A stretch of DNA of 56,332 nucleotides, taken from sequence record PQ850607.1, one strand, 5' to 3'. The notes below the pieces were generated by a model, which was given only the letters and a program-made list of their open reading frames with translations, made no database searches and had not been told where the DNA came from. This DNA comes from Escherichia phage HelliStehle_Bas95. Shown here piece by piece: positions 1 to 56,332 of this stretch. The position numbers and the translations under genes were made by a program. Numbering within the stretch: the first letter of the stretch is position 1; every line of letters starts with the position of its first letter.

Positions 1-747
1 ATGACACCAGAAACCCGCGCGGGGTTTATCCTGGAGTACATCGAAGGCGACCTGACCGATCAGTTACTGGCGGCTAAGTACGGCCTGGATGATTACCAGT
101 TTAAGACCGCAGTACATATAGGAACCGGGAACATCATTAAGCCGGAACCGCTAACCCGTGGCCTCAAGCGTGGTATGCATAACAGCGTAGCTGTAACTAA
201 ACTCGCCACCGAAACACTTGACGCTGAAGACATGGCACTCAGTCCTCTACAATCGGCTGAGATTATCGAACCTAAGTCCCGTGACCTGGCGCTCTACCTT
301 AATAACGCGGAACTCAGCTTCGCCAACAACGTGCTCAGGGGAATGAACGCCACCGCCGCCGCCGCCGCCAGCTTTGAGATCTTCAATAAACAACTGGCTG
401 ATAAGAAGGCCGCCGAGTTATTGCGGTCATCTCACGTTGCCGACTACCTGGCGAGCATGAAGGGCCGCAGCTTATTCGCGCCAGTAAGGAACAAAGCGTA
501 TCTTGAGGCCGTGCTATGGCAGGTCATCGACCGTGGCTTACAGCTTAAGCAGGAAGTCGACACGCTTACCGGTATGCCAGTCGAGGGTCAATGCAAATAC
601 GATCCGAAGTCGGTCATTGCCGCAAGTGCGCTACTCTCACGCCTCAAAGGCTGGGATAACGTGGAACAAGGACAAGGCGAAGCAGAAACACAGCGCGACC
701 GCTTACGCCGACTGCAAGCAAACTTTAAACAGATTGGGAGTGAGTAA
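1..747 (+). CDS. hypothetical protein; candidate terminase small subunit (by position only)
   Basis: 248-aa ORF starting at window position 1; stop overlaps terL start at 747; SD AAGGA at 56319-56323 if sequence is circular. Confidence 0.5.
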   Translation: MTPETRAGFILEYIEGDLTDQLLAAKYGLDDYQFKTAVHIGTGNIIKPEPLTRGLKRGMHNSVAVTKLATETLDAEDMALSPLQSAEIIEPKSRDLALYLNNAELSFANNVLRGMNATAAAAASFEIFNKQLADKKAAELLRSSHVADYLASMKGRSLFAPVRNKAYLEAVLWQVIDRGLQLKQEVDTLTGMPVEGQCKYDPKSVIAASALLSRLKGWDNVEQGQGEAETQRDRLRRLQANFKQIGSE

Positions 748-2375: not shown

Positions 2376-3910
2376 CGCTCCATACGGGCTGTACCAGAGT
2401 TAAACAACTGGCCGCAGCCCGCTTTCTCCCACGCATCACGCTGAGAAGTGTAGTCGCCTATCACCTTGCCCATCTCCTTCAAAGTTGACTCAATGTTAGC
2501 GTGCTGCCACTTCTGGCGACTCATGAAGTACCCGCGATCGCTCCAGATACGGAACGACTCGACCACGCTCACAACCTTGAAACCTATAGCTTCGTAAGCG
2601 CTACCGGTGAAGTAGTCATAGTCGGTGAACGTGTAGGTACAGGGTGTTCCTTTCAGCAGACGCGACAGGCCACCTTGCACTGTACATGACGTTGCATATC
2701 TCACCAGTTCCCCATCGTTGGCTACACCAATTGCAGCAACCAGACCGAGCGTCGGGTGTACCAGACCTTTGCGGATAGCTGCCACTCGCCCACGCTGAAC
2801 GTGGTTGTCTTCCATGAATGACATGTAGTCACTCGATGACAACTCAACAACCTTACACTTACGTGCGCCAACCTTTGGCTCACTCGACTTACCCAGCGCG
2901 TGCGCAATGATGCGTTCAATCTGCGGGCGACGCTCTGACCAATCCGTGGCCGACACAGAGATTAGACGGTAACCCTGAGCGTTGCAGAGTTCACGTTTCA
3001 TCATATGATAACCCTTGCGGTCCTTATGCCAGTACTCACCGTTAAACTCGATGGCAACCTTGCACGACTCGATGACGATGTCGAGTTCATAAGGTGCGAT
3101 GATGGACTTGACGTTGTGGGCAACTGTTACACCAAGTGACTCGATATACTCACGCACTTCAATCTCACCACGTGAAACCTGCGTTGACTGTGCACAATGA
3201 GGGCAACCGCTCTTATTCACGATGACATTGTTGACCCGAGCAACCCATTGCTTCCCGCAGTCACCGCACTCGAATTCGCTGTCACCCTTACTTTCTTTGT
3301 AGGTGAGTAGGGTGAGGTTGGAAGGTAAACGACGCTCAATCTCTTCACGTGGTATTACTCGCGCTTTCCCATTGCGACGTTGCCCACAACCTTTACAATA
3401 ACGCTGCCCTGTCATCACGCCGTGCGCGGATGTTTCACGCTCACACCCGCAATCAGCACAGGTGAACACGCTCTTACCTTCCGCTGTCCCACAGTATCTG
3501 ACAAGCTTCACGCCTTCCGGTAAGCGTGCAATAACATCAGATTCGCTAAGCGCGTTACGTTGAGCGGCGCACACCTTGCATCCGCTCCCTTTGGTTAACA
3601 GGTCTTTACACGTAGTTTCCCACTCGTGACCCTCAGTGCAACGGAAGGTACTGCGTTCACGCCGTGATCCACCGTAGGTGACCAGGGTGATACCTTCGGG
3701 CATTGCTGGTGCAGGTTTAACGAAGCGTTGACCGCGGTTACGCTCGGAGCACGCAGGGCAACCTGATGATCTGAATTGTGCGTTGGTTGTACGTGACCAA
3801 TGGTGGCCGCACTCGACGCAACGGAATTCACACACCTTGTCAAGTTTCAGGAGCACCACACCTTTCTGTAAGCGCGGGATAACGTCGGCGTGAGTTAGTT
3901 TAGCTGGCAT
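2372..3910 (-). CDS. zinc-ribbon repeat protein with PD-(D/E)xK (DUF559/Vsr-like) nuclease motif; putative free-standing homing endonuclease
   Basis: 512 aa; four tandem CxxC...HxW...CxxC ribbons, then ELDIV ... AIEFNGEYWH motif; opposite strand inserted between terL and tail-fibre genes. Confidence 0.65.
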   Translation of the reverse strand: MPAKLTHADVIPRLQKGVVLLKLDKVCEFRCVECGHHWSRTTNAQFRSSGCPACSERNRGQRFVKPAPAMPEGITLVTYGGSRRERSTFRCTEGHEWETTCKDLLTKGSGCKVCAAQRNALSESDVIARLPEGVKLVRYCGTAEGKSVFTCADCGCERETSAHGVMTGQRYCKGCGQRRNGKARVIPREEIERRLPSNLTLLTYKESKGDSEFECGDCGKQWVARVNNVIVNKSGCPHCAQSTQVSRGEIEVREYIESLGVTVAHNVKSIIAPYELDIVIESCKVAIEFNGEYWHKDRKGYHMMKRELCNAQGYRLISVSATDWSERRPQIERIIAHALGKSSEPKVGARKCKVVELSSSDYMSFMEDNHVQRGRVAAIRKGLVHPTLGLVAAIGVANDGELVRYATSCTVQGGLSRLLKGTPCTYTFTDYDYFTGSAYEAIGFKVVSVVESFRIWSDRGYFMSRQKWQHANIESTLKEMGKVIGDYTSQRDAWEKAGCGQLFNSGTARMER

Positions 3911-6435: not shown

Positions 6436-6557
6436 TTTAACAATGCTTCTTGATTCAATGCGCGTAGTGCCGACTATTCGGCTGAACTGTCCGCTCTCAA
6501 ATCTGGCAAGTAATCCCCAGTCCTGCTATGATGCTCTGATTAACGGAGGATGAAATC

Positions 6558-21133: not shown

Positions 21134-22116
21134 TGAGCATCGGTGAAGCACTGGCGTCAATGTTTGCGGGTGCCGCTGGCGAAGCAGCAGGTAATCGGGC
21201 GGTAGAGATCCGCGACGAAGAAAAGGCACGCATCGCTGAAGCACGCGAAATGAAAATGATGGCACTCCAGCAGAAGTACCAGACGTCCGAGCGTGAGGCC
21301 AGTCAGGCTTACGGCACCGCTGAGCGTCAGGATACTCAGGGTTGGCAGTCTGGCGAGAAGCAGAAAGACCGTGACTTCCAGTCGTCTGAACGTGCTGCGT
21401 CTCAATCCTTCCAGGCGGTACAATCGGATAAAGCGCGTGCTTACCAGGACGCTAAAGAGAAGAAAGCGCAACTGGCGGCACAACAAGAATCCGCAGCGGC
21501 GGTAGGTAGTGTTGACGATTTAGGTAACGCTATCAAACTCGACGGTACACCTTATAAATTGGGTGGCCAGTGGTTGCGCGCTAAACAGTATGCTAACGGT
21601 CGCATTGTGGCTGAACCGCTGGGTGCTACCGCTGCCGAGAAGATGGATAGACGCGTAGCGCTTGAGAATGACGACGGTGACACGCAGAAGTCTCGTGATC
21701 TCACAATCGTTAAAGAAGGTATTAAATCCGGCGACACAACAGGTGTATTCGGTTCGTTTATCAACGCAGGCAACATGGCAGGTGACCTGGCGAGTGCTAA
21801 ACTCGGTAGCGAGAAATCACGCGATGTTTACAACGCTGTAAACCGTATCAATGGTGCGTTGTTGGCACAAGGCGTGGCCGATGCGAAAGCGATGGGTGCA
21901 TCGGGCATCAACACCGCGGCAGAAGCACAGATGTACTTCAAAGGATTGCCGTCGCTTGACTTGTCAAGCCCCGAAGCAGCAATGCGTGCCATTAACCAAA
22001 TCGATGCGTATAATAAAGACTTCAAGCAAAAGCAGCGGCAAGAAGTCGGGCTACCAGCGAACCCCGTGTCTAAACAAAGTAGCGACGGGTCGTTCGGTAG
22101 CAAATACGGTTATTGA
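21133..22116 (+). CDS. hypothetical virion protein
   Basis: 327 aa. Confidence 0.5.
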   Translation: MSIGEALASMFAGAAGEAAGNRAVEIRDEEKARIAEAREMKMMALQQKYQTSEREASQAYGTAERQDTQGWQSGEKQKDRDFQSSERAASQSFQAVQSDKARAYQDAKEKKAQLAAQQESAAAVGSVDDLGNAIKLDGTPYKLGGQWLRAKQYANGRIVAEPLGATAAEKMDRRVALENDDGDTQKSRDLTIVKEGIKSGDTTGVFGSFINAGNMAGDLASAKLGSEKSRDVYNAVNRINGALLAQGVADAKAMGASGINTAAEAQMYFKGLPSLDLSSPEAAMRAINQIDAYNKDFKQKQRQEVGLPANPVSKQSSDGSFGSKYGY

Positions 22117-22122
22117 TTCAAG

Positions 22123-22142
22123 CCGCCCTACGGGGCGGTTTT
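22123..22142 (+). terminator. intra-operon terminator/attenuator hairpin
   Basis: CCGCCC-tacg-GGGCGG followed by TTTT. Confidence 0.5.
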
Positions 22143-22157
22143 CACAGGAGTACTATC

Positions 22158-24362
22158 ATGGCACGTCCTTTTTCTGAAATCGCAGCATCCCCCGAGTTTC
22201 AGGCTGAAACACCGGAGACTCAGGAAGCAATCAAACAAGACTATTTCAATAAGGTGATCCGCCCACAGGTTGAGGCCAATGGGGACGACCCTGACGAGGT
22301 TTTCAACGACTTCTCGTCAAAGTACACATTCAAACAACCTGAAGCGCCTGTGCAGCAACCTGAAGCGCCTGTGCCGCAACAACAGGTTCAACCTTCACCG
22401 GAAGAACAGCAGGCCGCAGCAACCGTTCAGAACTATCTGAACAAGCCCGCTGAAACAGGTTACACCCTGGCCTCATCAGGTAGTGAACCACAGGAAACTA
22501 ATACCGGTATCATCGGTGCTATCAAAAATGCTGTTACTGGTGGTGACGCGGCGGAAGGTAGTGCCGCAAGTTTACCTCTGGCAGGTGAAGCGCCTGAGTT
22601 CTTTGGTAACGGTGTGGACGAAGAACTGAAGAACGGCGACGCACTAGACCAAATGCTCAATTGGGCTGGCAACAGGCTCGGAGGCATCGCTACGAATATG
22701 TTTGGTGGTGACGATTCAATCATCAAACGTGCGGAGTCTCGCGGTGGTAAGGTGTCACAGGATGAGCAGGGTAATGTAATCATTACTTTCCCGTCGGGTA
22801 AATATCAGGTTAACAAACCCGGTCTGGACATCAACGACGTTGCTAAATTTACGGCACAGGCAGCCCCTGCGGTCGCTACAGGTGGAGCGGGTGCAGCATT
22901 AGGTCTCGGCGGACGAATGGTCGCGCAGGGAGCGATTCAGGGCGGTTTAAACTACGCTCAGCAAAAAGCTGTAGAAGCTGGCGACGGTCAGAATGTTGAC
23001 ATGGGTGATGTTGCACTTAACGCGACACTGGGTGGTACTGGTGAGTTACTTGGCCCGGCCCTGCGCGGTGGTCGTGAAATTTTCAAACGCGGCTTAGGTA
23101 ATGCTGACGAGGCCACGAAAGAAGCGTTGAAGATTGCCGACGAAACAGGTATCCCAATCGCCACTTCCGACATGATTGCCGCAGGTGATCTCGGTGGCGG
23201 TGTAACAAAATACGCATCTGCGGTTACAGACAAGCTCGACCCGTTTGCCGCAGGTCGCCTGCGGCAACAGGAACTGATCCCGGAAAAGACCGCCGACATT
23301 TTTGTTGACCCTGAAGTCGCCGCAAAATATACAGACGAAGCTATGATTGAAGCGCTTGATAAAGGTAGTCGCGCACGCATGGCCGACGCTGGTAAACGCT
23401 TCGAAGAAGTGAAGACAGCTATGGGTGACCAGCCGATTCCCGTCCGAAATACCTCAGCGGCTATTGACGACGTGCTGAAAGAATGGGAACGCCCTGGGAC
23501 ACTCGTCGACAAAGGTGACATTGAATACCTGAAAGACATTCAGGCGAAGCTCACAGAAGCGCCACAAGATGTGATTATGCTTCGCGAAAACCGCACGCGC
23601 CTGCGTCAGTCGTTCGGATCCGGTATGAACAAAATGCTGGGTAAAAATGACCTTCAGAAAGCAGGGCGTAAAATTTACGACGCTTTGACTAAGGACATGC
23701 ACGAAGGTGTTGAAAACACGCTGGGTGCTGATGCTTTGACAACGCTCAAATCGGCCGACAAAGACTGGGCGTCTATCAATAGCGATTTAGGTTTCCAGAA
23801 AATTGCGGCAGCCGTTAAGAAAGGCGAGGCCGACCCCGCGCGACTGCGTGAAACGTTAACATCATTCGGCACGGGCGATCTACAAGCGCTTGACCGCAAT
23901 CTCAACGCCGAAGGTCGGAATATGATCAAAGGCGCTGTACATAAAAACTTAATGGCAGCTGCAACCAACGCTGACGGAGAATTTCAACCAGGGGCAATGT
24001 TGCGTGCCATTGAGAAAAACAAGGACGTCATCAAGCAGTTCTACACTCCCGAACAGGCCAAGCAGATTGAAGGTGTGAAGAAACTTCTGTCCACTGCGCG
24101 CGGTGCTAAGGCTGCAACGACCATTGCTAACAACGGTGGCTTGATGCTTCCTATCACTGCGGCGATGGGTGTTGGTTCGGCGGGAATCGGTGGTATTGCG
24201 GCGGCTGCGGGTGGTATTGCGGCTAAACGTTTGAGTAACTCTCGCCCAATGCGAAACGCGCTGATTCGTCTGTCCACCATGAAACCCGGCAGCATGGCCT
24301 ATTACAAGACAGTGAGACAAATCAACGCGATCATCGCGAATCAAGCATCTACCGACGAGTGA
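22158..24362 (+). CDS. large virion protein (possible internal/injection protein)
   Basis: 735 aa from ATG 22158 with SD ACAGGAG; last gene of the + morphogenesis block. Confidence 0.5.
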   Translation: MARPFSEIAASPEFQAETPETQEAIKQDYFNKVIRPQVEANGDDPDEVFNDFSSKYTFKQPEAPVQQPEAPVPQQQVQPSPEEQQAAATVQNYLNKPAETGYTLASSGSEPQETNTGIIGAIKNAVTGGDAAEGSAASLPLAGEAPEFFGNGVDEELKNGDALDQMLNWAGNRLGGIATNMFGGDDSIIKRAESRGGKVSQDEQGNVIITFPSGKYQVNKPGLDINDVAKFTAQAAPAVATGGAGAALGLGGRMVAQGAIQGGLNYAQQKAVEAGDGQNVDMGDVALNATLGGTGELLGPALRGGREIFKRGLGNADEATKEALKIADETGIPIATSDMIAAGDLGGGVTKYASAVTDKLDPFAAGRLRQQELIPEKTADIFVDPEVAAKYTDEAMIEALDKGSRARMADAGKRFEEVKTAMGDQPIPVRNTSAAIDDVLKEWERPGTLVDKGDIEYLKDIQAKLTEAPQDVIMLRENRTRLRQSFGSGMNKMLGKNDLQKAGRKIYDALTKDMHEGVENTLGADALTTLKSADKDWASINSDLGFQKIAAAVKKGEADPARLRETLTSFGTGDLQALDRNLNAEGRNMIKGAVHKNLMAAATNADGEFQPGAMLRAIEKNKDVIKQFYTPEQAKQIEGVKKLLSTARGAKAATTIANNGGLMLPITAAMGVGSAGIGGIAAAAGGIAAKRLSNSRPMRNALIRLSTMKPGSMAYYKTVRQINAIIANQASTDE

Positions 24363-24964
24363 TTACGGAAAGGGGTGTTGTACAGCCCCTTAATTTCTTT
24401 AATTGCTGCGGTCACGTTCGTAAACCAGACGATTCTAGCAAAGAACACGACCCCCAACGTACACCATGAAATGAACCATGTCATCGGGTCCATAACACCG
24501 AAGAATGCTGGCGCAAACGTCAGGGTGAACGCCATACCGACATAACCTACAACATTCATGACAGCATTAAACCACGACTTTTTAAGCATCTCGGTCATAG
24601 CAAAACGCATGGCTTCTTCTGTCAACTCTCCGCGATTAGTGCGCTTGATTTTGGATACGGTAGGTGTTTTCGACATGTTCAGGACAAACCACACACCACC
24701 AGTGATCACTAAAGTACCAACACTCAGTACATCAAAGGATAAACCTGCGACGATAAGTAACAGACCTACAGTCCAGTTGAAGGTGCGGGATGTACCGAAC
24801 AATGCGCCAAACACCGCCTGTGTAGTCCGCTGACCAACGTATTTCTTCAACGTCTCCAGGTCTTCAACTTTATAGCGATTTAACGACACTACGCGTACAG
24901 CGTGCAATCTGTTGTCAGCACCGTAGTATTTAACGTTTCTGTTTTTCTTCTCTGAATATTTCAT
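24341..24964 (-). CDS. polytopic membrane protein of unknown function
   Basis: 207 aa with about 4 hydrophobic helices; 3' end overlaps the convergent 735-aa gene. Confidence 0.5.
   Translation of the reverse strand: MKYSEKKNRNVKYYGADNRLHAVRVVSLNRYKVEDLETLKKYVGQRTTQAVFGALFGTSRTFNWTVGLLLIVAGLSFDVLSVGTLVITGGVWFVLNMSKTPTVSKIKRTNRGELTEEAMRFAMTEMLKKSWFNAVMNVVGYVGMAFTLTFAPAFFGVMDPMTWFISWCTLGVVFFARIVWFTNVTAAIKEIKGLYNTPFRNHSSVDA
24370..24391 (+). terminator. terminator hairpin closing the morphogenesis block
   Basis: AAGGGG...CCCCTT stem followed by AATTTCTTT. Confidence 0.5.
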
Positions 24965-25472
24965 AATTTTCTCTCACTATTCGTGTATAGCCGCGATTGT
25001 ATTTGAACTCTGGTCCCCAGTCTGTGACACGTGCCACATTGTGGAAATTATGCATTTCGATTCTGATTTGCGATTCTTTACAGCCAAACATGGCCGCTAT
25101 CTTGTCGCACCAGCTGAGATCCGTTTCAGCAATTCTGGCGACAACCTCATCGGCCACGGTTTGTGGAGAATCGATACCGTAAAGGTCTTCTATTTCCAGC
25201 CATAACTTAGTACCTGCCAGCCGCCTGGTCACCGACCACAACCATTGTGTATGTGCTGTTTGACCCAATGCTTTACGGGGTGACATATGCCCCAGTATTT
25301 CGTGCCTGGCGACTTCTTTCAGTCTGTAGGCAGGCATCGGGAAGAACACTACAGCTTCCTCACTGTACAGCGCCACCGCCTCAACGTTATAGGGCATCGG
25401 GTGAAACGACTCACACTTCAGATAATGAACGTCACATATACCGTCAACCAACCTGTCTACATAAGCACTCAT
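24930..25472 (-). CDS. HExxH-motif protein (putative ImmA/SprT-like zinc metallopeptidase)
   Basis: 180 aa containing VARHEILGHM; strong SD AAGGAGG; overlaps downstream membrane-protein gene. Confidence 0.45.
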   Translation of the reverse strand: MSAYVDRLVDGICDVHYLKCESFHPMPYNVEAVALYSEEAVVFFPMPAYRLKEVARHEILGHMSPRKALGQTAHTQWLWSVTRRLAGTKLWLEIEDLYGIDSPQTVADEVVARIAETDLSWCDKIAAMFGCKESQIRIEMHNFHNVARVTDWGPEFKYNRGYTRIVRENYEIFREEKQKR

Positions 25473-25492
25473 AGAGCCTCCTTTTCACGTCA

Positions 25493-25528
25493 AATATACT
25501 TGACGATGTTAACGCTGTCAAGTATATT
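25493..25528. promoter_or_regulatory. overlapping divergent sigma70-type promoters embedded in a 12-bp perfect inverted repeat
   Basis: + strand TTGACG-17-TATATT (25500-25528); - strand TTGACA-17-TATATT (25493-25522); AATATACTTGAC/GTCAAGTATATT dyad around GTTAAC. Confidence 0.6.
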
Positions 25529-25557
25529 CGGAAAACCACTAAACGGAGATCACATCA

Positions 25558-25769
25558 TGAATTTACCACCGTTACCACCATCGTCACAGATATTCAGAGA
25601 AACCCTGAAAATTGTCAGTGACGCTAAGTCACGCGGAGTAACCATCGGCAGCACTGTAAACTACGGCGGGTCGACGTATGTCGTCGATAAGTTTCACGGT
25701 AGGGCGGTACGTCTTCTTAACGACACAGGTGGCGCGATTATAGTTGACGTCAGAGAGGTCAACCGATAA
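25558..25769 (+). CDS. small hypothetical protein
   Basis: 70 aa; SD ACGGAG; downstream of + promoter. Confidence 0.5.
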
Positions 25770-25810
25770 GCTGTAGTTTCTCGATGACATTCCCTGTAGA
25801 TTGATAGCGC

Positions 25811-25841
25811 GCCCTTTCCACTTTGGTTAGGGCTTTTTTTT
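25811..25841 (+). terminator. rho-independent terminator
   Basis: GCCCT...AGGGC stem followed by T8. Confidence 0.5.
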
Positions 25842-25887
25842 GTGCTATTCTCTAGTCTGGAGTTACAGGGTGCATGGAGCATTTCAT

Positions 25888-26262
25888 ATGGACATGGGAT
25901 ATTACAACATGAACAAGCAGATTAGAGTGGAAATGCTTGTCGGCATGGTGACACTTGCATGGTCAATCGTGGCGGCAGTCTTCAAACAGCCGATCATTAT
26001 CGACGAGTTATCTGGTGTTATGCCGGGCGCATATTGGGTATTCTCAGGTATCGTAATCGGAGGCGCACAAATCTTCATCTCCCGCAATCCCGACCGATGG
26101 ATGGGAACATTCAGTCACTGGTGTGTAGCGTTCTTCAGTTGTATCTTCTGGTGTTATCTCGGCATGGCCGCACAGGCTGCCGCAGTAGGAGTTCTTCCCG
26201 TCCTGATTTTCTGGTCAACCGCTGGTATCACTTTATGGGAGTTGGCTCATGTTCGAACTTAG
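25888..26262 (+). CDS. membrane protein
   Basis: about 125 aa, several hydrophobic helices; start codon uncertain. Confidence 0.45.
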   Translation: MDMGYYNMNKQIRVEMLVGMVTLAWSIVAAVFKQPIIIDELSGVMPGAYWVFSGIVIGGAQIFISRNPDRWMGTFSHWCVAFFSCIFWCYLGMAAQAAAVGVLPVLIFWSTAGITLWELAHVRT

Positions 26263-26482
26263 TTCAATTCCTGTGGATGCGCCGTTACCTTTCATTGCCA
26301 TCGCTGTGTTATTCAACCTGGTGCGCCATGCGTTGAATCTTCACCACGAACGTAAGAAGGAAGCTGCGGAAGAGGCCACGAACGAAAGGATTGTTTTGTT
26401 GTCAGCTAAACTGGCGAGGGCGGAACAGACTATCGAGCACTTGAGGGAAGAAGTGGAACGCTTAGTAAACAAAGGGGCTTAA
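26249..26482 (+). CDS. small membrane-anchored coiled-coil protein
   Basis: 77 aa; N-terminal hydrophobic helix then charged helical region. Confidence 0.45.
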   Translation: MFELSSIPVDAPLPFIAIAVLFNLVRHALNLHHERKKEAAEEATNERIVLLSAKLARAEQTIEHLREEVERLVNKGA

Positions 26483-26493
26483 CGCCCCTTTTT
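26471..26493. terminator. bidirectional terminator shared by convergent genes
   Basis: AAAGGGGC-ttaac-GCCCCTTTTT; both stop codons (TAA 26480-26482 on +, TAA at 26479-26481 on -) lie in the loop. Confidence 0.6.
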
Positions 26494-26679
26494 AATACTC
26501 GCTGCAATTTTTAACTGCACAGGTACACGGTCAGGATCGCGGTGAATACCTACATCCGACGGTGCGGAAATGCGTAGACCGACGTTACCGTTCTCGGAGT
26601 TCTCCACCGTCACGACAATATCGTTACCGATGTAAACACTCTGACCTTCACGTCTGGTAATACGAAGTCCCTTAGCCAT
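26479..26679 (-). CDS. csrA: CsrA/RsmA-family RNA-binding regulator homologue
   Basis: 66 aa MAKGLRITRREGQSVYIGNDIVVTVENSENGNVGLRISAPSDVGIHRD matches CsrA pattern L-I-T-R-R-x-G-x4-I-G-x4-V-T-V...AP..V..HR. Confidence 0.75.
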   Translation of the reverse strand: MAKGLRITRREGQSVYIGNDIVVTVENSENGNVGLRISAPSDVGIHRDPDRVPVQLKIAASIKKGR

Positions 26680-26905
26680 TGATCTCCGCCTTAGCTTTCT
26701 TAGCTTTGATGACGCGACTAATCGCCACCAGTAAAGTGATAACACCAGACACGACCGGGAGATATTCCTCCGGTACCACAGCCTGGAATAAATGTGGGGC
26801 AGTTTGCCACACGATGAGTGCTGCGTCAGGTACGGTGGTCAGTACGGTGGTCACAGCGATACCAATAGTAATACCAGCATCATGCAATGCTTTAGATTTA
26901 TCCAT
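26672..26905 (-). CDS. holin-like small membrane protein
   Basis: 77 aa, two hydrophobic helices and basic C-terminus; immediately downstream of endolysin. Confidence 0.55.
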   Translation of the reverse strand: MDKSKALHDAGITIGIAVTTVLTTVPDAALIVWQTAPHLFQAVVPEEYLPVVSGVITLLVAISRVIKAKKAKAEING

Positions 26906-26961
26906 CGTGGATACTCCTTGATTTGGCGTCCTTGCCAGGATGAGCGACCCCGACTGGCCGC

Positions 26962-27492
26962 TTAGATATTGACGCGATTAGCAACCCACCCGTAAATGAA
27001 CGAGCGATTTTTAGCGTTGCTTTCGGTAAGCTCAATATACCGTACGCACTGGAGACTGTTAAGCATTTTCAGTAATACTTTAGTGCCAACGCTACCGCGT
27101 GAACGCAGGAAGTCTGCGAGGGCATTCACTGTACGCTTACCGATAGCACCATCCACTACGAGGCCAGCGCCTGACACAGCGTTGAGTGCACGCTGGAGGA
27201 ATTTACCAGCCACCGTCGGACCCATGTTCACGCCAGTGTCCACCACTTCCGCAGCTACAGCCGGGTCAAGTTCAGCCAGTCGGTGATAGCCGGGATTGAT
27301 CACGTAGTCTTTGTAGTAGATGTCGTAGGCTGTGGTAACAGGTAAGTCCCGCATGTTACCTTTATATCCGGCAGCACGGGCAACCTTTTCAGTGATGCCG
27401 TATTTGGTAGCGCCGCCCGGATCATTCGGATGGTCTACGTATCCACCTTCAACGCGAATAATCTCGTCGATGATTTCACGGATGCTTGTCAT
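26962..27492 (-). CDS. endolysin, glycoside hydrolase family 108 with C-terminal peptidoglycan-binding domain
   Basis: EGGYVDHPNDPGGATKYGIT signature near N-terminus; 176 aa. Confidence 0.8.
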   Translation of the reverse strand: MTSIREIIDEIIRVEGGYVDHPNDPGGATKYGITEKVARAAGYKGNMRDLPVTTAYDIYYKDYVINPGYHRLAELDPAVAAEVVDTGVNMGPTVAGKFLQRALNAVSGAGLVVDGAIGKRTVNALADFLRSRGSVGTKVLLKMLNSLQCVRYIELTESNAKNRSFIYGWVANRVNI

Positions 27493-28343
27493 AGCGTTGC
27501 TCCTTTTTCAGTTACGTATGGCTCGCAAACTTCTGCGAGGATGTCAAGATACCGACTGGCCTTGTCGTACTGCAACAGGATGTCGCCGCAGTCATCAGCT
27601 TCCTTATCCTTATCGTACGGTACCACCATATCGGTGTACCGGGTACACGCGAAGTAACCTTCGTCACCCGCGTAAGAGAAGTTGGCCGCCTGCACATTCG
27701 GGAAGTCCTTCAGCGTGGAGAACACCTTGTCGTTGCCTGACAGGTTTTCCATTTTGCGGAAGGTTGCCGTAGCTTTGAAAGCACCGTACAGGTCCAGGCT
27801 GTCGCCCAGTTCCAGAGGATGCTCATCTTCCCGGTCGATGTTCAGCGTAGCTCGTACCATTTGGCAAAACGCCGTAGGCTGGAGATAACTTTCAATCGGC
27901 AGGCTGTTAAAAGCCTGACGCAATAGTTGCGTGACCTTTTCAACCACACGGGGAGAAGCGCCCACAAAAAGAGCATCTCGATCTGGGTCATACGCCACCC
28001 AGCCGTAGTCGTTAGAAGGGAGTACGTTCTCCCACATTTCCGCTTTAACTTGTTCATAAATGGCATTGGATTCATCCCGGTTAAAAGTTTTATCTTTAGT
28101 GCGGCGAGCGAACTCAGCACGCAACCACTTGTCCGGCACCTTGCGTTTCTGGTACTGGAACTGTAGGAAGGTGATGCCCTTGTGTACCCAGGTCATCTCG
28201 TCCTGCATAGGGTTAGCCGCGATGAGGCCAATGCTTTCTTCGTTCCCTGCAGTGCACGGTTTGAAGTACGCATCCTCATTCGGCTTCGACAGGTCAAGTT
28301 CCTTCTCGACCGTGAACGCGGTGACTTTAAATTTTGCCGTCAT
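27489..28343 (-). CDS. hypothetical protein (weak resemblance to recombination-associated RdgC)
   Basis: 284 aa; call is tentative. Confidence 0.45.
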   Translation of the reverse strand: MTAKFKVTAFTVEKELDLSKPNEDAYFKPCTAGNEESIGLIAANPMQDEMTWVHKGITFLQFQYQKRKVPDKWLRAEFARRTKDKTFNRDESNAIYEQVKAEMWENVLPSNDYGWVAYDPDRDALFVGASPRVVEKVTQLLRQAFNSLPIESYLQPTAFCQMVRATLNIDREDEHPLELGDSLDLYGAFKATATFRKMENLSGNDKVFSTLKDFPNVQAANFSYAGDEGYFACTRYTDMVVPYDKDKEADDCGDILLQYDKASRYLDILAEVCEPYVTEKGATL

Positions 28344-28692
28344 GTTCTTCCCACCAGATTAATTTTTCCAGGCAGTCTTTCGCCTTGTTCAAATCTTCCA
28401 GACGCTTCGCCTTGTCGCCTTTCTTGCGCAGGTATTTAACCACGCTGAACTCCAGGCTACTCAGGTTGTTCACCATTGCATATTCGAAAGGTTGAATGCC
28501 TTTCTTATAGTGCTGGCCGCCCACCTGGTTATCCCACGGATTGACACGCGGCGCGACACTGAATGAATTACCAAACACTGTACCGGTATCAGTTTTCGGT
28601 ATACCCAGGTCGACACCACTGACCGCAGGCTTCCACGGGCAGTCAACGTTGTCGTGGTTTTTACCACAGGCTGAGCAATATGATTGAGTCAT
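28327..28692 (-). CDS. DUF3310-like phage protein with N-terminal zinc ribbon
   Basis: GGQHY..GIQP.EY ... KYLRKKGDKAKRLEDLNKA pattern. Confidence 0.55.
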   Translation of the reverse strand: MTQSYCSACGKNHDNVDCPWKPAVSGVDLGIPKTDTGTVFGNSFSVAPRVNPWDNQVGGQHYKKGIQPFEYAMVNNLSSLEFSVVKYLRKKGDKAKRLEDLNKAKDCLEKLIWWEEHDGKI

Positions 28693-29255
28693 CAGAATTT
28701 CTTCCCATGTGCTTCAGCGCGAGCGCCAGGTTGATGGTCGGCACGCTTACGGTTGTAAGCAACCTTCTCCATGATGGCCCCGATGATATCCAGGTTTTCG
28801 CTTTCGGCGATGTCGAGAATGCGGATGATTGCGTCGGCCAGTTCCACTTCCAGCATGGAGCGGTTCGGCAGGTGGTCATCCATCAGGTTCTTACGTGCAC
28901 CTTCCATCGCTTCAGAGATCTCACTGTGCACCAGGCACAACAGAGTACCCATCTCACGCGGCTTATCCCACCAACCCATCTGACGATTCTGACGGTGGAT
29001 GCGACGTTGCAGGATAGCGAACGGGATACTGCGGTACAGTTCGGTGCTGGCCGACTCGACACGCTTGCAACCCATCACTTCAGACTCAACTTCCACTTTC
29101 CCATCTTCAGCTTTGATCGGATTAATACTCATCTTTTCGGAATCCTTATTAGGTTGATTGTCTTTCATGAAACTGTGACCACCATGAATCGATTGATTGC
29201 AGCCGGGTGATGCACCAACTTCGTTTACACCACAGTGTATGCAAGATCTACTCAT
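28692..29255 (-). CDS. MazG-like nucleoside triphosphate pyrophosphohydrolase
   Basis: C-terminal EMGTLLCLVHSEISEAMEGARK...ELADAIIRILDIAE; start placed at ATG 29255 with SD GGGGA. Confidence 0.6.
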   Translation of the reverse strand: MSRSCIHCGVNEVGASPGCNQSIHGGHSFMKDNQPNKDSEKMSINPIKAEDGKVEVESEVMGCKRVESASTELYRSIPFAILQRRIHRQNRQMGWWDKPREMGTLLCLVHSEISEAMEGARKNLMDDHLPNRSMLEVELADAIIRILDIAESENLDIIGAIMEKVAYNRKRADHQPGARAEAHGKKF

Positions 29256-29382
29256 CTTTTTCATTCCCCTTTTTACGACCGATTTTACCACTGCATACAG
29301 GGCATTCCTCGCCCCACTTCTTAGCACTGTAATGACCGTGCTCGCCACACTTCCGTAAATCGTTAAGCCATAAGATAGCCAT
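29248..29382 (-). CDS. small zinc-ribbon protein
   Basis: 44 aa MAILWLNDLRKCGEHGHY...CPVCSG; below six-frame track cutoff; downstream of promoter at 29416-29444. Confidence 0.4.
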   Translation of the reverse strand: MAILWLNDLRKCGEHGHYSAKKWGEECPVCSGKIGRKKGNEKDE

Positions 29383-39464: not shown

Positions 39465-41885
39465 ATGACCTATAAGCCTGAACAGGCGCAGTTGTTTTAT
39501 GCCGCGCTAACTGGAATGCAAAACCCGCCGCTTGTATGGCAGTGGTTCTGTGACTATGACAAAGACCGACGCGACCTGGCTGGCTGGGAATACGCGTATA
39601 TGAATCCGACAAAGCTGGCTGACCTTCAGGCTCGCGGCTGCGGCGTGTTCACGTCTGTCAATGGTTCGACTACAGGCGGTCGTGGTAAGAATGACATCGA
39701 CATCTTCCGCGCTGTCTTCATGGACAGTGACGGTGCTCCGTTCCCGGACCAGTGGCCTATTCCACCACACGCTATCGTCAAGCGCGACGACACGCACTTC
39801 CACGCTTACTGGTTTATCGACGGCGACTGCTCTGCTATGGAGTGGATGATCGCACAGAAGCAGATCGCTCTGCACTTCGGTAGCGACGAGTCAATGGTAA
39901 ACCCTGACCGCGTTATGCGTGTACCGGGATTCATGCACCAGAAGTCACTGAACAACCGCGTTCTCTACGAACTGGCGGAACTCCACGCTGACATGCCACG
40001 CTACAAACTGCGCGACGTTATCTCACGCTTCACGTTGACCGACGAGAAGATGATGAAGATGGGCGAGTGGGTACGCCAGCGCAGCGCTCAGTACGTGGGC
40101 GGTATGGATGATTTCGACGACAACGATCACAACTGCAAACAGTTTATCACCTACCTGAAGGAGCGCGCCGAGCAATCCATCAGCGGCCAGGGTGGTAACC
40201 ATGTGCTGTTCAAGACTGCCGCCGCCGGACGTGACTACCAACTGTCACCGCAGAAAACCTACGAGTTAATGATTGACTACTGGGACGCTAACAACGAACC
40301 GCCGTGGGGCGATGAGATGTGGCCGACCGTCCAAAACGTTTACAAGTACAGCCAGAATGGTGTCGGTGCGCGCTCTTTCGCTGCACGTATCACTGAGCAG
40401 GCCGCTATGCTGCCGGGTATGTCACTGACTCCGGTTGAGCAGGCTATCTATGTGCCGGAAGCGCCAGTCGTTGACGAGAAGCAGCAAATGGCCGAGTCAG
40501 TAGCACGCCTGGCTGCGGCAATCGAGTCCGGCGATGACAGCATGATGCAGCCTGACGACATGGTTTACAGTTCCAACCATACGCGTAACGCTATGCTGTT
40601 TATGTGGTTGCACTGCCGCAACGGTGAGTACCTTGTCGACGATGGTATCATGTACCAGTTCAACGGTAAGATTTACGAAGCTCAAGCGCCGGACTTCCTG
40701 AAGGTTAAACTGGCTACTGAGATGCAACTCAGCTTCCCTTCGGAGTCAACCATCAACGGTACCGCCAACCTCATCAAGCTGTTACTGGCACGCTCTGCTC
40801 CGTCCAAATGGCCTGAGTGGAAAGGTGATCCCGATAAGGATACATCCGGCTTGATATGCTTCAACAATGGCATTCTGGATATTAACGAGAATCTCTGGTA
40901 TGAACACACGCACTTACTGCGCATTCGTACCATTCTCCCGTTCGATTATGATCATCAGGCCACTTGCCCTACGTGGGAAAACTTCCTGCGTGACGTGTGG
41001 GGTAACAGCAAATACGAACCACTGATTGAACAGTTACAGATGTGGTTTGGCTATATGCTTATGGATGATACCAGTCAGCAGAAGATGCTCATCATGTCCG
41101 GTACCGGGGGCGCTGGTAAGTCGACCATCATGCGCACGCTTAACAAAATGGTAGGCGACTACAACTGCGCGTTCCCTAACCTGAACGGCTTAACTAAAGA
41201 TTCGCAACTGGCAGCTTTATTCGACAAGCCTGTGGCAATCCTGAACGACGTGTCTGATCCGTCACCATCTAACGCTACAGCAGTGGTTGAACGTATCAAA
41301 GGTATCGTAGGTCAGGACAAGTTAACGATTGACCGCAAGTACCTGACGTCAATCGAGGTCAGTTTCCGGTGCCGTCTGAACGTTACCTGCAACGCCTTCC
41401 CGCGTTTGTCAGAGTCATCAAACGCTATGCTTCGTCGTGGTCTGTTCTTCACAACCAAGCGTTCGTTTGTCGGCAAGGAAGACATGACGCTGGAACCGCG
41501 CATCGAAAAAGAGATGACAGGCATTATCAACTGGGCGATCACAGGTATCAAAAAGTTACAGAAGATTGGCAAGCTGGAAAACCACCCTTGCATGAATGAC
41601 GACATTGAAATCTTCCGTATGTTGACGTCGCCGCTTGAAACGTTCGTGCAGGATGCGCTGGTATACCGTGAGGATGCTTACATCACCATCTCAGATCTGT
41701 GCAAGCGTTACAAAGCATGGTCAACCCTGAACGAAGGTTCGCGCATGTTCAGTAACCAGTCATTTATAAGTAAGATCGGTGTGTTCCCTGGTTTGAGTCT
41801 GGCGAAACGTGGCCGCGACTATGTACTGGAAGGTGCTTACCTTCGACCGGATGACGAACCAGACAACGGAGTTATTTACCAGTGA
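39465..41885 (+). CDS. DNA primase / D5-type NTPase (primase-helicase)
   Basis: 806 aa; N-terminal primase-polymerase-like region (GCGVFTSVNG, FMDSDGAP), C-terminal P-loop SGTGGAGKST. Confidence 0.7.
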   Translation: MTYKPEQAQLFYAALTGMQNPPLVWQWFCDYDKDRRDLAGWEYAYMNPTKLADLQARGCGVFTSVNGSTTGGRGKNDIDIFRAVFMDSDGAPFPDQWPIPPHAIVKRDDTHFHAYWFIDGDCSAMEWMIAQKQIALHFGSDESMVNPDRVMRVPGFMHQKSLNNRVLYELAELHADMPRYKLRDVISRFTLTDEKMMKMGEWVRQRSAQYVGGMDDFDDNDHNCKQFITYLKERAEQSISGQGGNHVLFKTAAAGRDYQLSPQKTYELMIDYWDANNEPPWGDEMWPTVQNVYKYSQNGVGARSFAARITEQAAMLPGMSLTPVEQAIYVPEAPVVDEKQQMAESVARLAAAIESGDDSMMQPDDMVYSSNHTRNAMLFMWLHCRNGEYLVDDGIMYQFNGKIYEAQAPDFLKVKLATEMQLSFPSESTINGTANLIKLLLARSAPSKWPEWKGDPDKDTSGLICFNNGILDINENLWYEHTHLLRIRTILPFDYDHQATCPTWENFLRDVWGNSKYEPLIEQLQMWFGYMLMDDTSQQKMLIMSGTGGAGKSTIMRTLNKMVGDYNCAFPNLNGLTKDSQLAALFDKPVAILNDVSDPSPSNATAVVERIKGIVGQDKLTIDRKYLTSIEVSFRCRLNVTCNAFPRLSESSNAMLRRGLFFTTKRSFVGKEDMTLEPRIEKEMTGIINWAITGIKKLQKIGKLENHPCMNDDIEIFRMLTSPLETFVQDALVYREDAYITISDLCKRYKAWSTLNEGSRMFSNQSFISKIGVFPGLSLAKRGRDYVLEGAYLRPDDEPDNGVIYQ

Positions 41886-42376
41886 AACCTTTCTACGCAA
41901 GCAAGACACCAAAGGAGTTACGCGATTGCTGGGGTACGCCCCAGTGGTTGATTGATCGCCTGTCGCTGGAGTTTGATTTCGCAATCGACGCGGCGGCAGA
42001 TGAGCACAACAGAAAGTTCCCCCTGTATTTTAAGCAGGGGTTGGGCTTTAACTGGGCGGACTTCTGCCCGGAAGGTAAATGGGTATGGAACAACCCGCCG
42101 TTCTCTGACGTCGACCCGTGGGTGGATCAGTGGATACAGTGCAGCGAATCGGACCGTGGCGTGGTGTCAATCGTCAACGCACAGACGAGCAGCCGCTGGT
42201 TTCATAAGGCGCTGGAGGCTTGCTCAGAGGCCAGGTTTAGTATCGGGCGTGTGGCCTTCATTCACCCCGTTACCGGAAAGCGTGTAGCCGGAAACAACCT
42301 GGGGCAAGTGCTGTTCGTATTTGAACCGGGCAAGCTGGGTGAAAAAAGAATTGGCACTTTCAAAGGAACCAAGTAG
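41882..42376 (+). CDS. phage Dam-like DNA N6-adenine methyltransferase
   Basis: DCWGTPQWL and NPPF motifs; GTG start overlapping primase stop. Confidence 0.65.
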   Translation: MKPFYASKTPKELRDCWGTPQWLIDRLSLEFDFAIDAAADEHNRKFPLYFKQGLGFNWADFCPEGKWVWNNPPFSDVDPWVDQWIQCSESDRGVVSIVNAQTSSRWFHKALEACSEARFSIGRVAFIHPVTGKRVAGNNLGQVLFVFEPGKLGEKRIGTFKGTK

Positions 42377-49986: not shown

Positions 49987-50213
49987 TAGTCTTTCCACCA
50001 TTTCTTTTTTGATTCCAGCCAGGCGCAAGCCTCGTTGATAGTGTCGCAGTTTGACGACATCTCACCGTTGAACCGGGAGAAATACCCCTCGTAAAACTTA
50101 ACGACCGTATTCCCGTTGCGGTCTTCCCATACGGCCGAGTCGTTGCGACCGTCAAAGCTGGTCAGTTTGAAGCCGCCCGGTGTTAATGCTAATGCCTGCT
50201 CAATAGTCATCAT
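49986..50213 (-). CDS. hypothetical protein
   Basis: 75-aa ORF. Confidence 0.45.
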   Translation of the reverse strand: MMTIEQALALTPGGFKLTSFDGRNDSAVWEDRNGNTVVKFYEGYFSRFNGEMSSNCDTINEACAWLESKKKWWKD

Positions 50214-50404
50214 GATATTAATTCCCCTACTGTTACGTTGAGCGCCGCCGCCAGTGCTACCAGCGTTTGAAGGCGCGGATTGTTTGCTTTCAGTACCATG
50301 AACAGTGCGCCACGTTTCCAGCCTGCTCGCCGTTCAACCTCTGATAAACTTATGGCCTCCTTCTCGGCCAGGAGTTGCACACGTTGCTTTAAATTCACTG
50401 CCAC
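50210..50404 (-). CDS. HTH (XRE/Cro-like) transcriptional regulator
   Basis: 64 aa; ISLSEVERRAGWKRGALFMVLK helix-turn-helix pattern; GTG start. Confidence 0.5.
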   Translation of the reverse strand: MAVNLKQRVQLLAEKEAISLSEVERRAGWKRGALFMVLKANNPRLQTLVALAAALNVTVGELIS

Positions 50405-50574
50405 TTAAATTCTCCCATAATGTCGATTGCTTTGATGGGATCCCGCTCACACATTGCCACTAATACAGCGGCGGTGGCGACAATCCCGTTATGTGCTGCG
50501 TTTGTACACCCGATAAGCGCAAATACGATGACCGAGCATACAATCCATAAACAGATATTAAATGTCATCGCCAT
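50395..50574 (-). CDS. small hydrophobic peptide
   Basis: 59-aa ORF MAMTFNICLWIVCSVIVFALIG...; below six-frame track cutoff. Confidence 0.3.
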   Translation of the reverse strand: MAMTFNICLWIVCSVIVFALIGCTNAAHNGIVATAAVLVAMCERDPIKAIDIMGEFKWQ

Positions 50575-54519: not shown

Positions 54520-54774
54520 TTACTTATGCTTAGGTTGCCAGTGTTTTAAGAGCACCTCCTTATCTTCAGGGTAATTTAACGAAGCACTCGCCGAAAATGT
54601 GCTCATGGTTGTGTAAACCTTACCGCCTACCATAAAACTTTCACTGCGTTGATGCGGTACCTCGACACGGCGACCGGAAGGTAGTACGCCTACAAAGGTA
54701 TCTCCGACTATTGACGACTTACCAAGCTGTAACCCACCCGGACAAACGTTATTGAACACGTCGTAAGGTCTCAT
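54520..54774 (-). CDS. hypothetical protein
   Basis: 84-aa ORF. Confidence 0.5.
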   Translation of the reverse strand: MRPYDVFNNVCPGGLQLGKSSIVGDTFVGVLPSGRRVEVPHQRSESFMVGGKVYTTMSTFSASASLNYPEDKEVLLKHWQPKHK

Positions 54775-55814
54775 AATTTAATCTCCCGTTTAAAGTTATC
54801 AGCTTTATTAGCGTTACTGGCATTGCGCATCAACATATAAGCCTGCATGGCCTCGCGGATCACGTGGCGGATGTGCTGCAGTATATCGAAGTGTCCCCCG
54901 GTTAAGCCTGGAGTGGTCAAAGCAATATTATTAATCCACGCCATATCTTCAGGGTATTCCATCACATCCTTACCCGTCTTGAGTCTGCCGCCAACACCAA
55001 CACCCTTGGCGTCCGTGTAGCGCAGGCTCCAGTCTTTGCGACCCTGGAGGCAAGGCAACTTATCATAAAGGTAAGCTACCGCAGGCGCTGGCGGCTCATT
55101 AACCCACATAAAAGCCATAGTGTCATGATGGTAGACGCTGGCCCGTGCCTGGCGGTAACGCTCAGACGCTGAATCAACGCACTTAACACAGCCGCCGTTG
55201 GACGTGTAGCGTTGAGTGGATGCGCAACGTTTGCAGGGTGTCGACTCGTAGAACTTTAAGCCCTGCTCTAAAGCCTGGCCTCGCGGCGACTCAACGCTTG
55301 GCCCTTTAATGCACATCACACAGCCGCCGTTAGAGGTGAAGCGCTCCGTAGTCCCACACTTACCACAAGGTGAACCGTCGTACCTTTTGAGGCCATTGGC
55401 TTTAGCTAACTGGCGGGGAGTCGGTGTACGGTCAAGCGGCTTTAAGCTGGCAATATGACATTGCTGACATTTTGTGGTTGTCACCAGTCTTGTGGTTGAA
55501 CCACATTTAACGCACGGCTGCCCTTCATATGTTTTAGCACCCGACGCTTTAGCTGCGATGCGTGCATCTACTATCGGCGACGGTCGACCGCCTCCACATC
55601 CTTTGCGCTGACACTCAACACAGGAACCGTTAGCTGTGTAACGTTCAGATCGCACACCTTCAAAACATTGTATACAAGGGCGTCCCCAGTAACGAGGGTT
55701 GCGCTCGGCGCGCGCTTCTCTTCTTGAGTCGGCTGGCGGTTGCCGCTTCCCTTTCTCCTCAGGTACGTTCTCATCCATCCAGGCGAAAACTTCGTTCATG
55801 TCTAACTCTTCCAT
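54771..55814 (-). CDS. early protein with five tandem zinc-ribbon repeats
   Basis: 347 aa; repeats of Y-x-G-x-PC-x-KCG-(S/T)-T-x-R-(Y/F)-T-S-N-G-x-C-V-x-C; first gene after the leftward early promoter. Confidence 0.6.
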   Translation of the reverse strand: MEELDMNEVFAWMDENVPEEKGKRQPPADSRREARAERNPRYWGRPCIQCFEGVRSERYTANGSCVECQRKGCGGGRPSPIVDARIAAKASGAKTYEGQPCVKCGSTTRLVTTTKCQQCHIASLKPLDRTPTPRQLAKANGLKRYDGSPCGKCGTTERFTSNGGCVMCIKGPSVESPRGQALEQGLKFYESTPCKRCASTQRYTSNGGCVKCVDSASERYRQARASVYHHDTMAFMWVNEPPAPAVAYLYDKLPCLQGRKDWSLRYTDAKGVGVGGRLKTGKDVMEYPEDMAWINNIALTTPGLTGGHFDILQHIRHVIREAMQAYMLMRNASNANKADNFKREIKL

Positions 55815-55846
55815 TGGTATACCTCCAGTTGTTTAGTTGAGATTGC

Positions 55847-55875
55847 AGTTTACTACAGGTTAGATAGCAGGTCAA
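55847..55875 (-). promoter_or_regulatory. leftward early promoter TTGACC-17-TAAACT
   Basis: read on - strand; AT-rich upstream region; about 26-nt leader with SD GGAGGT. Confidence 0.45.
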
Positions 55876-55881
55876 CTAACC

Positions 55882-56055
55882 AAACTCGTAGCCCTCCTAA
55901 AATATTCAAAAACTTTCTTAGAAATTTTGTAGAACACTAACTAAGTAATACTTATATATCTAACTTAATATACTATAATCTATTGCTTGCGATAATATAT
56001 ATCTAACTTAATGTACTATTCAGCAGCTTAAATATTTTGGGTGGGCTACGAGTTT
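55882..56055. repeat. control-region repeats: 13-bp inverted repeat pair flanking two 24-bp direct repeats
   Basis: AAACTCGTAGCCC (55882-55894) / GGGCTACGAGTTT (56043-56055); TATATATCTAACTTAAT(A/G)TACTAT at 55953-55976 and 55996-56019; CTAACTAAGTAA at 55937 and 56141. Confidence 0.6.
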
Positions 56056-56267
56056 AATACTTTAACGTTAGGTCTAACCTATACGTGGGTCTTCTTCTCT
56101 TCCTTCCAAATATTTTCAGGGTGCTAACACCCGTGGCCCCCTAACTAAGTAAAGCAGCCGTTAGCATCTAACTAAGCTCAAAGTTTAGCCAATTCCTGTA
56201 GCGCTATGCGAAATCTAAGAAAGCAGCAGGGTAAGACATCTGGCCTTTTTACGCAGACGCGCGATAT

Positions 56268-56311
56268 TTGTGTGACACGCATCACACTGTTATGATGTGC
56301 AGGTGATCACA
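56268..56311 (+). promoter_or_regulatory. candidate rightward promoter for gene 1, overlapped by two CRP-like sites
   Basis: TTGTGT-17-TATGAT (56268-56296); TGTGA-N6-TCACA at 56271-56286 (perfect half-sites) and TGTGC-N6-TCACA at 56296-56311. Confidence 0.4.
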
Positions 56312-56332
56312 AACACCTAAAGGAATGACGTC

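Follow-up and report, generated by a model that had tools for sequence, protein, structure and literature searches.

CRP-type palindromes overlapping the terminase promoter of Escherichia phage HelliStehle_Bas95: candidate operators for repression by host cAMP-CRP

We analyzed a 56,332-bp stretch of DNA from Escherichia phage HelliStehle_Bas95 (PQ850607.1; the whole stretch is referred to here as the window), which is an entire phage genome written from the ATG of gene 1 onward. Near its end, two palindromes that resemble binding sites of the host regulator CRP overlap the predicted sigma-70 promoter of the terminase and structural operon. We hypothesize that these are operators through which cyclic AMP (cAMP)-bound CRP represses this promoter, a reading that we hold to be probable, with confidence a little above even. 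The palindromes themselves are real, conserved and non-random, with strong evidence that they form a regulatory element under selection, and CRP is the best candidate for the protein that binds them. CRP as the binder, the position of the transcription start and the repressive effect are inferred from sequence.

The palindromes and the promoter

The end of the window (…AAAGGAATGACGTC) joins its start (ATGACACC…) exactly as in Escherichia phage PTXU04, and this join places both palindromes 21–64 bp upstream of the small-terminase gene. They lie in a 518-bp non-coding region (55815–56332) that separates the early genes, read leftward, from the packaging and structural operon, read rightward. The features of the locus are as follows.

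56271..56286: site 1 (O1), TGTGA-cacgca-TCACA, TGTGAcacgcaTCACA = TGTGACACGCATCACA, matching 10 of 10 core positions, with a 6-bp spacer
56268–56289: the 22-mer centered on site 1
56296..56311: site 2 (O2), TGTGC-aggtga-TCACA, TGTGCaggtgaTCACA = TGTGCAGGTGATCACA, matching 9 of 10 core positions, with the mismatch A8 to C
56268..56273, plus strand: -35-like hexamer TTGTGT, weak (3 of 6 positions), overlapped by site 1 and aligned in position with the TTTACA -35 of relatives
56288..56296, plus strand: extended -10 element TGtTATGAT; close relatives have TGtTAAGCT
56302..56304, plus strand: predicted transcription start, about 7 nt past the -10 hexamer and near 56303, from standard sigma-70 geometry
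56320..56325, plus strand: Shine-Dalgarno sequence AAGGAA, 7 nt ahead of the ATG at window position 1
56176..56270, plus strand: conserved non-coding block 5' of site 1, a putative remnant of the PA-PB promoter module of relatives (described below)
1..747, plus strand: gene 1, encoding the small terminase subunit and opening the packaging and structural operon that the promoter would control

An initial annotation, made from the letters alone, had described a TGTGA-N6-TCACA palindrome at 56271–56286, a second copy with one mismatch at 56296–56311, and a promoter overlapping them. Re-reading of the sequence confirmed that both half-sites of site 1 are exact with a 6-bp spacing, and that site 2 carries a single mismatch. 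The promoter is likewise present, as TTGTGT (56268–56273), 17 nt and TATGAT (56291–56296). A TG at 56288–56289, absent from that annotation, makes the -10 an extended one, and this TGn is conserved. The last T of the -10 hexamer is also the first T of site 2.

For the gene downstream, HHpred assigned the PTXU04 orthologue of gene 1 as the small terminase subunit, and this orthologue scored 'Fit' (PMC11879866 supplements). P0055, a distant homologue of the gene 1 product, carries the PF03592 domain.

Conservation and promoter modules in related phages

The closest records are those of the Xuquatrovirus members PTXU04 and Pondi, two podoviruses of E. coli, and DNA identity to PTXU04 across the genome is mosaic (67–93%). 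A megablast search of the last 933 bp against phage records gave no match, a sensitive blastn search with the same segment recovered PTXU04 and Pondi, and an IMG/VR scan with the TerS protein returned PTXU04 itself only. For the gene 1 protein, 55 public homologues were available. DNA was fetched around a graded series of these, with 20 kb taken from each metagenomic relative. The Xuquatrovirus clade was represented by five genomes (the window, PTXU04, Pondi, L004 and L019).

Site 1 is perfect in 5/5 of these genomes, which between them carry four different spacers (CACGCA, CGCAGG, CTTGCA and CACCGA). No half-site change was found in the five, so that invariant half-sites enclose a freely varying spacer, as in a protein footprint. 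Of the two sites proposed initially, site 1 is thus perfect clade-wide; site 2 is a good match in this genome only, its left half being TATGC (two mismatches) in the four closest relatives. In 12 phages the right half of site 2 is always GATCACA; on the left, 7 of them have TGTGA and the window has TGTGC. The 157 bp 5' of gene 1 are 87.9% identical to PTXU04, compared with 78.6% for the neighboring terS-terL coding DNA.

Among 13 non-redundant related sequences (206 kb), 32 perfect TGTGA-N6-TCACA sites were found against 0.17 expected, and 13 of the 14 sites with at most one mismatch in the gene-called stretches (~20 kb each) of L014 and L015 are intergenic. The excess of perfect sites in relatives, together with the invariant half-sites around varying spacers, indicates that the palindromes are not a product of chance. 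That they are chance matches, or decaying relics without function, is improbable in the extreme. The idea draws on the window-wide count of sites with at most one mismatch (5 against 2.4 expected, with 8 of 100 shuffles reaching 5, which is not significant), on the degradation of site 2 in close relatives, and on the strongest predicted early promoters of the window, from which the motif was lost or where it never was. Against it stand the perfect state of site 1 in five genomes despite spacer turnover, the conservation of the upstream DNA above that of neighboring genes, and the placement of the sites. In 1000 Markov simulations, 0.1% of the genomes had an exact site within the final 518 bp, and 0.4% had a pair of sites, each with no more than one mismatch, within 50 bp of each other. 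The remaining one-mismatch sites of the window (25023, 25400 and 50436) were dismissed as regulatory sites because all lie within predicted open reading frames (ORFs), that at 50436 being small and unverified.

An RNA hairpin or terminator, as a related variant, fits the region no better. The 5-bp stems are invariant and never covary, no U-run (T-run in the DNA) follows them, and a full hairpin would not be transcribed because the predicted start lies inside site 2. An Rfam search of the region gave no family match and terminator calling gave none at the site; a hairpin, a terminator and a known RNA family were all rejected.

Divergent relatives (58–73% TerS identity) carry three modules of a promoter plus a palindrome 5' of terS, which we named PA, PB and PC. 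The terS-proximal promoter, PC, is TTTACA-18-TATGAT/TACACT, at the same place as the promoter of the window, which is corroborated by this homology and by the conserved TGn. Relatives have TATGAT, TAGTAT, TACTAT or TACACT in the -10 position, and a promoter scan detects these in L005 and L014. In these two, the last base of the tool-called PC -10 is the first T (of TGTGA) of a perfect TGTGAccaggaTCACA. The same -10/operator register was read by eye at PC of the other relatives and at PB of most.

We identify site 2 as the putative homologue of this perfect PC operator (TGTGAccaggaTCACA), and site 1 as that of the PB operator. The block 5' of site 1 (GTAGCGCTAYGCGAAATCT…TGGCCT) aligns with the PA-PB interval of the relatives; it holds GTAGCGCTATGCGAAATCT (56198–56216), TGGCCT (56241–56246) and GATATT (56263–56268). 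The alignment suggests that one or more small ORFs between PB and PC were lost in the Xuquatrovirus clade, leaving the operators 25 bp apart. From these homologies, the promoter of the initial annotation corresponds to PC, whose -35 has apparently degenerated to TTGTGT, with the conserved TGn extended -10 in compensation. The sites have turned over as well: the one at +1.5 is perfect in divergent relatives and decayed in the Xuquatrovirus clade, where a perfect one 25 bp upstream was kept. Vibrio relatives have a one-mismatch site 23–24 nt 5' of terS or terL. The terS promoter of L023–L025 has neither the motif nor another palindrome, and gives no sign of operator co-evolution in either direction.

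Candidate binders and the sense of regulation

The assignment to CRP is based on the exact CRP core of site 1 and the 9/10 core of site 2, including the 6-bp spacing, and on the promoters of relatives. At about 10 strong leftward early promoters in L014, L015, L020, L021, L024 and L019, and at PTXU04 60626, the motif stands exactly 18 nt 5' of a TTGACA/TTGACG-type -35, and with promoter spacers of 16–17 nt it is 40–41 nt from the -10. The linkers between these -61.5-type sites and the -35 are non-conserved and A/T-rich. In lac P1 the distance from site to -10 is 17 + 6 + 18 = 41 nt (the lac sequence used was verified as 100% identical in E. coli genomes). The spacing in the relatives is thus the class I geometry of lac P1 (-61.5), which points to host CRP. 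Scored against the 22-position consensus AAATGTGATCTAGATCACATTT, the 22-mers of the Xuquatrovirus clade match at 12–13 positions and those of relatives at up to 17; several of the latter extend toward the consensus with 16–17/22, for example TAATGTGATCTCCATCACACTA (17/22). No CRP homologue encoded in the window was found by tblastn, and PTXU04 and Pondi infect E. coli, which has CRP. There is precedent in phage T1, whose pir, dam and recE promoters are repressed by cAMP-CRP (Laganenka et al. 2019, PMC6737242). A literature search returned no description of promoters or CRP sites for PTXU04 or Xuquatrovirus.

Relative to the predicted start, site 1 is centered at about -24.5 and spans about -32 to -17, in the -35/spacer region. 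Site 2 is centered at about +1.5 and spans about -7 to +9, where it overlaps the edge of the -10 and the start site. Both fall outside the activating positions (-41.5, -61.5 and others). A protein bound at such occlusion positions would exclude RNA polymerase, which suggests repression rather than activation. The initial annotation had proposed that late gene expression would be coupled to host cAMP and carbon status. This proposal is retained to the extent that the sites are real and conserved and CRP is the best candidate; the positions at -24.5 and +1.5 do not correspond to class I or class II activation. In the mechanism that we propose, a CRP-cAMP dimer on site 1 (-35/spacer) or site 2 (-10 edge/start) would exclude RNA polymerase, so that high cAMP on poor carbon sources would repress late-gene transcription, and a low level or titration of cAMP-CRP would release it.

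That CRP binds and instead activates the late promoter is quite unlikely. The sequence evidence for binding is the same, and a weak -35 (TTGTGT) is typical of activator-dependent promoters. However, the centers of the sites miss -41.5, -61.5 and any activating position in helical phase, and with the TG of the extended -10 no good -35 is needed. The same operator directly adjoins good TTTACA-18-TATGAT promoters in relatives. For site 1 to be at -41.5, the -10 would have to be at 56308–56313 (CACAAA, without T at -7), and the leader would be about 12 nt. For lack of a usable -10 hexamer, we rejected the class II reading of site 1, and likewise promoters on the opposite strand at the sites.

Several observations weigh against repression by CRP. 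The relatives' early promoters with a -61.5 site are near consensus with A/T-rich DNA upstream, and should not need CRP. The strongest predicted early promoters of the window (at least 10 of 12 consensus matches) have 5–7 mismatches at -61.5, the site being absent there, and distant relatives (43–50% TerS identity) have a terS promoter without such a site. Many sites have flanks (TTT-TGTGA…TCACA-AAA or TCACAC) unlike the AAA…TTT preference of the consensus, and the sites are in part homologous copies, so that the counts overstate independent events. A lytic phage with a cAMP-silenced late operon requires a release mechanism, and none is evident. A conserved phage protein of the XRE type, with a helix-turn-helix (HTH) domain, could recognize the same palindrome. 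Scanning IMG/VR with the complete class I pattern (site-18-TTGACR-17-TATAWT) returned one contig (L018), which is unrelated to this phage and near chance expectation, and hence uninformative.

The XRE-type protein is encoded in the window at the following position.

50210..50404, minus strand: 64-amino-acid XRE/Cro-type HTH protein with HTH_26/HTH_3 matches, the main phage-encoded rival binder

The palindromes may be operators of a phage regulator, likeliest this one, that represses the late promoter early in infection; their resemblance to the CRP consensus would then be coincidence or mimicry. We regard this as possible, though doubtful. Operators overlapping the core promoter are the classic arrangement of phage repressors. 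PTXU04, L014 and L015 all have the motif, and all encode this protein at 58–86% identity with the SLSEVERR helix unchanged; this co-occurrence of the HTH_26 protein with the motif, in the window as in these three, does not show binding. Absence of the motif from the terS promoter of the most distant relatives would be expected for a clade-specific regulator. On the other side, it is improbable a priori that an independent protein should match TGTGA-N6-TCACA exactly, spacing included. A repressor also gains nothing at -61.5 of strong early promoters, a position that fits class I CRP sites. The XRE gene has no promoter-associated site beside it; a one-mismatch site 32 nt 5' of the gene sits in a small ORF, without a plausible promoter. 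Repression and autoregulation thus do not explain all operator positions, given the early-promoter sites at -61.5 and the lack of a promoter-associated one at the XRE gene. The homologue is absent from the Vibrio relatives that have a one-mismatch site just 5' of terS or terL. Knocking down gp70, the orthologue in PTXU04, left fitness unchanged (PMC11879866 supplement), which neither supports nor excludes this binder. A Pfam search of the first early genes and of the relatives' small PB-PC ORFs gave no DNA-binding domains.

A role in packaging, with the sites serving as recognition or bending sites near the genome end and terS (similar to cosB/IHF or pac), is very unlikely. It is favored by the location of the sites immediately 5' of terS in every relative, Vibrio phages included, and by the PTXU04 genome, which was reported as not circularly permuted (PMC6563267) and whose record begins ~180 bp 5' of site 1. 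A packaging signal should be unique, whereas the motif recurs at many intergenic promoters of relatives at fixed spacing to the hexamers, and its register with the -10 hexamer is conserved.

Two other elements of the conserved block bear on genome ends. GTAGCGCTATGCGAAATCT (56198–56216) is kept 5' of terS through L005–L025, with CGCTACAGATTTCACGTAGCG in L023/L025, which are without CRP-type sites; it may serve as a signal for packaging or for terminase, or may belong to a short RNA transcribed from the relatives' PA promoter. GTGGCCTC(C/T)TCT (window 56241–56246) repeats ~45–50 nt 5' of each PA/PB operator (L005–L021), and also opens the record of PTXU04, a genome reportedly without circular permutation. 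The element could be the mark of a genome end or belong to a duplicated promoter module of ~96 bp.

Returning to CRP as the preferred binder, a broader reading is that the whole temporal programme of this virulent podovirus family is wired to host cAMP-CRP or, alternatively, that the XRE protein is a mimic at CRP sites. We consider this speculative and rather unlikely. CRP at -61.5 would boost the early promoters, and CRP on the start sites 5' of the terminase gene would keep the packaging and structural genes off until removed. Removal might occur by titration on replicating genomes, by phage Dam methylation of the operator GATC, or by a phage-induced fall in cAMP or CRP. A single host factor would then act as both the early-to-late switch and a nutritional checkpoint. 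As a mimic, the XRE protein would compete with CRP on phage and host promoters.

A GATC overlaps a half-site (TGTGATC… or …GATCACA) in every PC operator and in the PB operators of most divergent relatives; in the window it is at 56304–56307, in site 2. The genome encodes a Dam-type methyltransferase (PF05869) at 41882–42376 on the plus strand. Dam methylation could modulate operator occupancy.

If CRP binds, virion production would depend on the carbon state of the host, with burst timing and yield differing between rich and poor media, which would be relevant to phage therapy and to phage ecology in gut and sewage. The locus would then offer an uncomplicated case, open to experiment, in which a virulent phage recruits a repressor already present in the host to control its late operon. 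Phage promoters under host CRP control are already known (T1), and this locus would add to them. The family-wide pattern, which combines class I-type early sites with start-site operators 5' of terS, would be more interesting if shown experimentally. The comparative data also give an annotated promoter/operator grammar for Xuquatrovirus, a barely characterized genus; in PTXU04, CRISPRi-ART showed most of the important genes to have no known function.

Other genome features and known systems

The initial annotation had linked the sites to a phage CsrA gene as a hint of carbon-state sensing.

26479–26745, minus strand: CsrA homologue (PF02599, E = 2.6e-12), at the end of the lysis cassette

The homologue is real, and nothing was found linking CsrA to the sites. 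Knock-down of the PTXU04 CsrA orthologue, gp28, gave small plaques and a 'Semi-fit' score (PMC11879866). The Vibrio relative 431E45.1 also encodes csrA.

Within the non-coding region, a 56-nt imperfect inverted repeat (73%; 55854–55909 and 56028–56083) flanks an AT-rich core. The core contains two 24-nt direct repeats, TATATATCTAACTTAATrTACTAT (55953–55976 and 55996–56019), 43 bp apart, and the left arm of the inverted repeat contains the first early promoter, TTGACC-17-TAAACT, on the minus strand. The region could represent divergent early promoters, an origin or a genome-end region. The motif CTAACTAAG(TAA) occurs three times in the non-coding region (55937–55948, 56141–56152 and 56168–56176). 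It is absent from divergent relatives, in which CTCTACAG-like motifs are repeated instead (L023–L025). The product of the first early gene (54771–55814, minus strand) contains at least 4 repeated CxxC…CxxC treble-clef-like zinc fingers. All relatives have this conserved protein, and gp92, the orthologue in PTXU04, scored 'Fit'.

An internal extended -10 promoter, TGcTATGAT (6519–6527), lies 5' of 6558, before the small gene preceding the portal gene, and is conserved at L014 14980, L015 16037, L020 8019 and L021 6105. In L015 a perfect CRP-type site ends 7 nt ahead of this -10; the window has no such site there. In a DNA-level comparison, the window had no match to most of PTXU04 gp25 (PTXU04 22690–29283), a putative polyvalent protein of 2,198 amino acids that is essential in PTXU04. 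A 749-amino-acid ORF (22113–24362, plus strand) occupies the corresponding place in the window, whose genome is ~5 kb shorter than that of PTXU04. Within the structural block, which is read rightward, a 512-amino-acid ORF (2372–3910, minus strand) lies on the opposite strand between terL and the gene after it. Pfam matches to Hom_end_hint, LAGLIDADG_3 and several HNH families point to homing endonucleases or an intein in the genome, and two ORFs matching the same DNA-polymerase PHROG suggest a split polymerase.

Comparison with known systems places the locus between several models. Like Cro/CI-type phage modules, it combines palindromic operators, in a fixed -10 register at several promoters, with a small conserved gene of the XRE type in the early region; it differs in that operator sequence and spacing equal the host CRP consensus, and in the additional -61.5 sites, which would be ineffective for a repressor. 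Resemblance to lac P1 is seen at the early promoters of relatives rather than of the window, where the motif is 40–41 nt 5' of the -10 (41 nt in lac P1). These phage promoters differ from lac P1 in having consensus -35/-10 elements and A/T-rich, UP-like linkers, and are not obviously activator-dependent, and the window's own sites are not at the -61.5 position.

In phage T1, as proposed here, a host carbon-state regulator acts negatively on phage promoters, tying lytic development to sugar availability. That case was shown experimentally and concerns a regulator gene, whereas the present one is drawn from sequence and concerns the terminase and structural operon of a virulent podovirus. Further differences are the pair of operators over the core promoter and, in relatives, the class I-type sites at early promoters. 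Some E. coli promoters, for example cyaA P2 and spf, are repressed by CRP through sites overlapping the core promoter. The locus resembles these in having a CRP-type site over the -10/start region, implying steric exclusion of RNA polymerase, and differs in that the promoter is a phage one with an extended -10 and carries a pair of sites separated by 25 bp.
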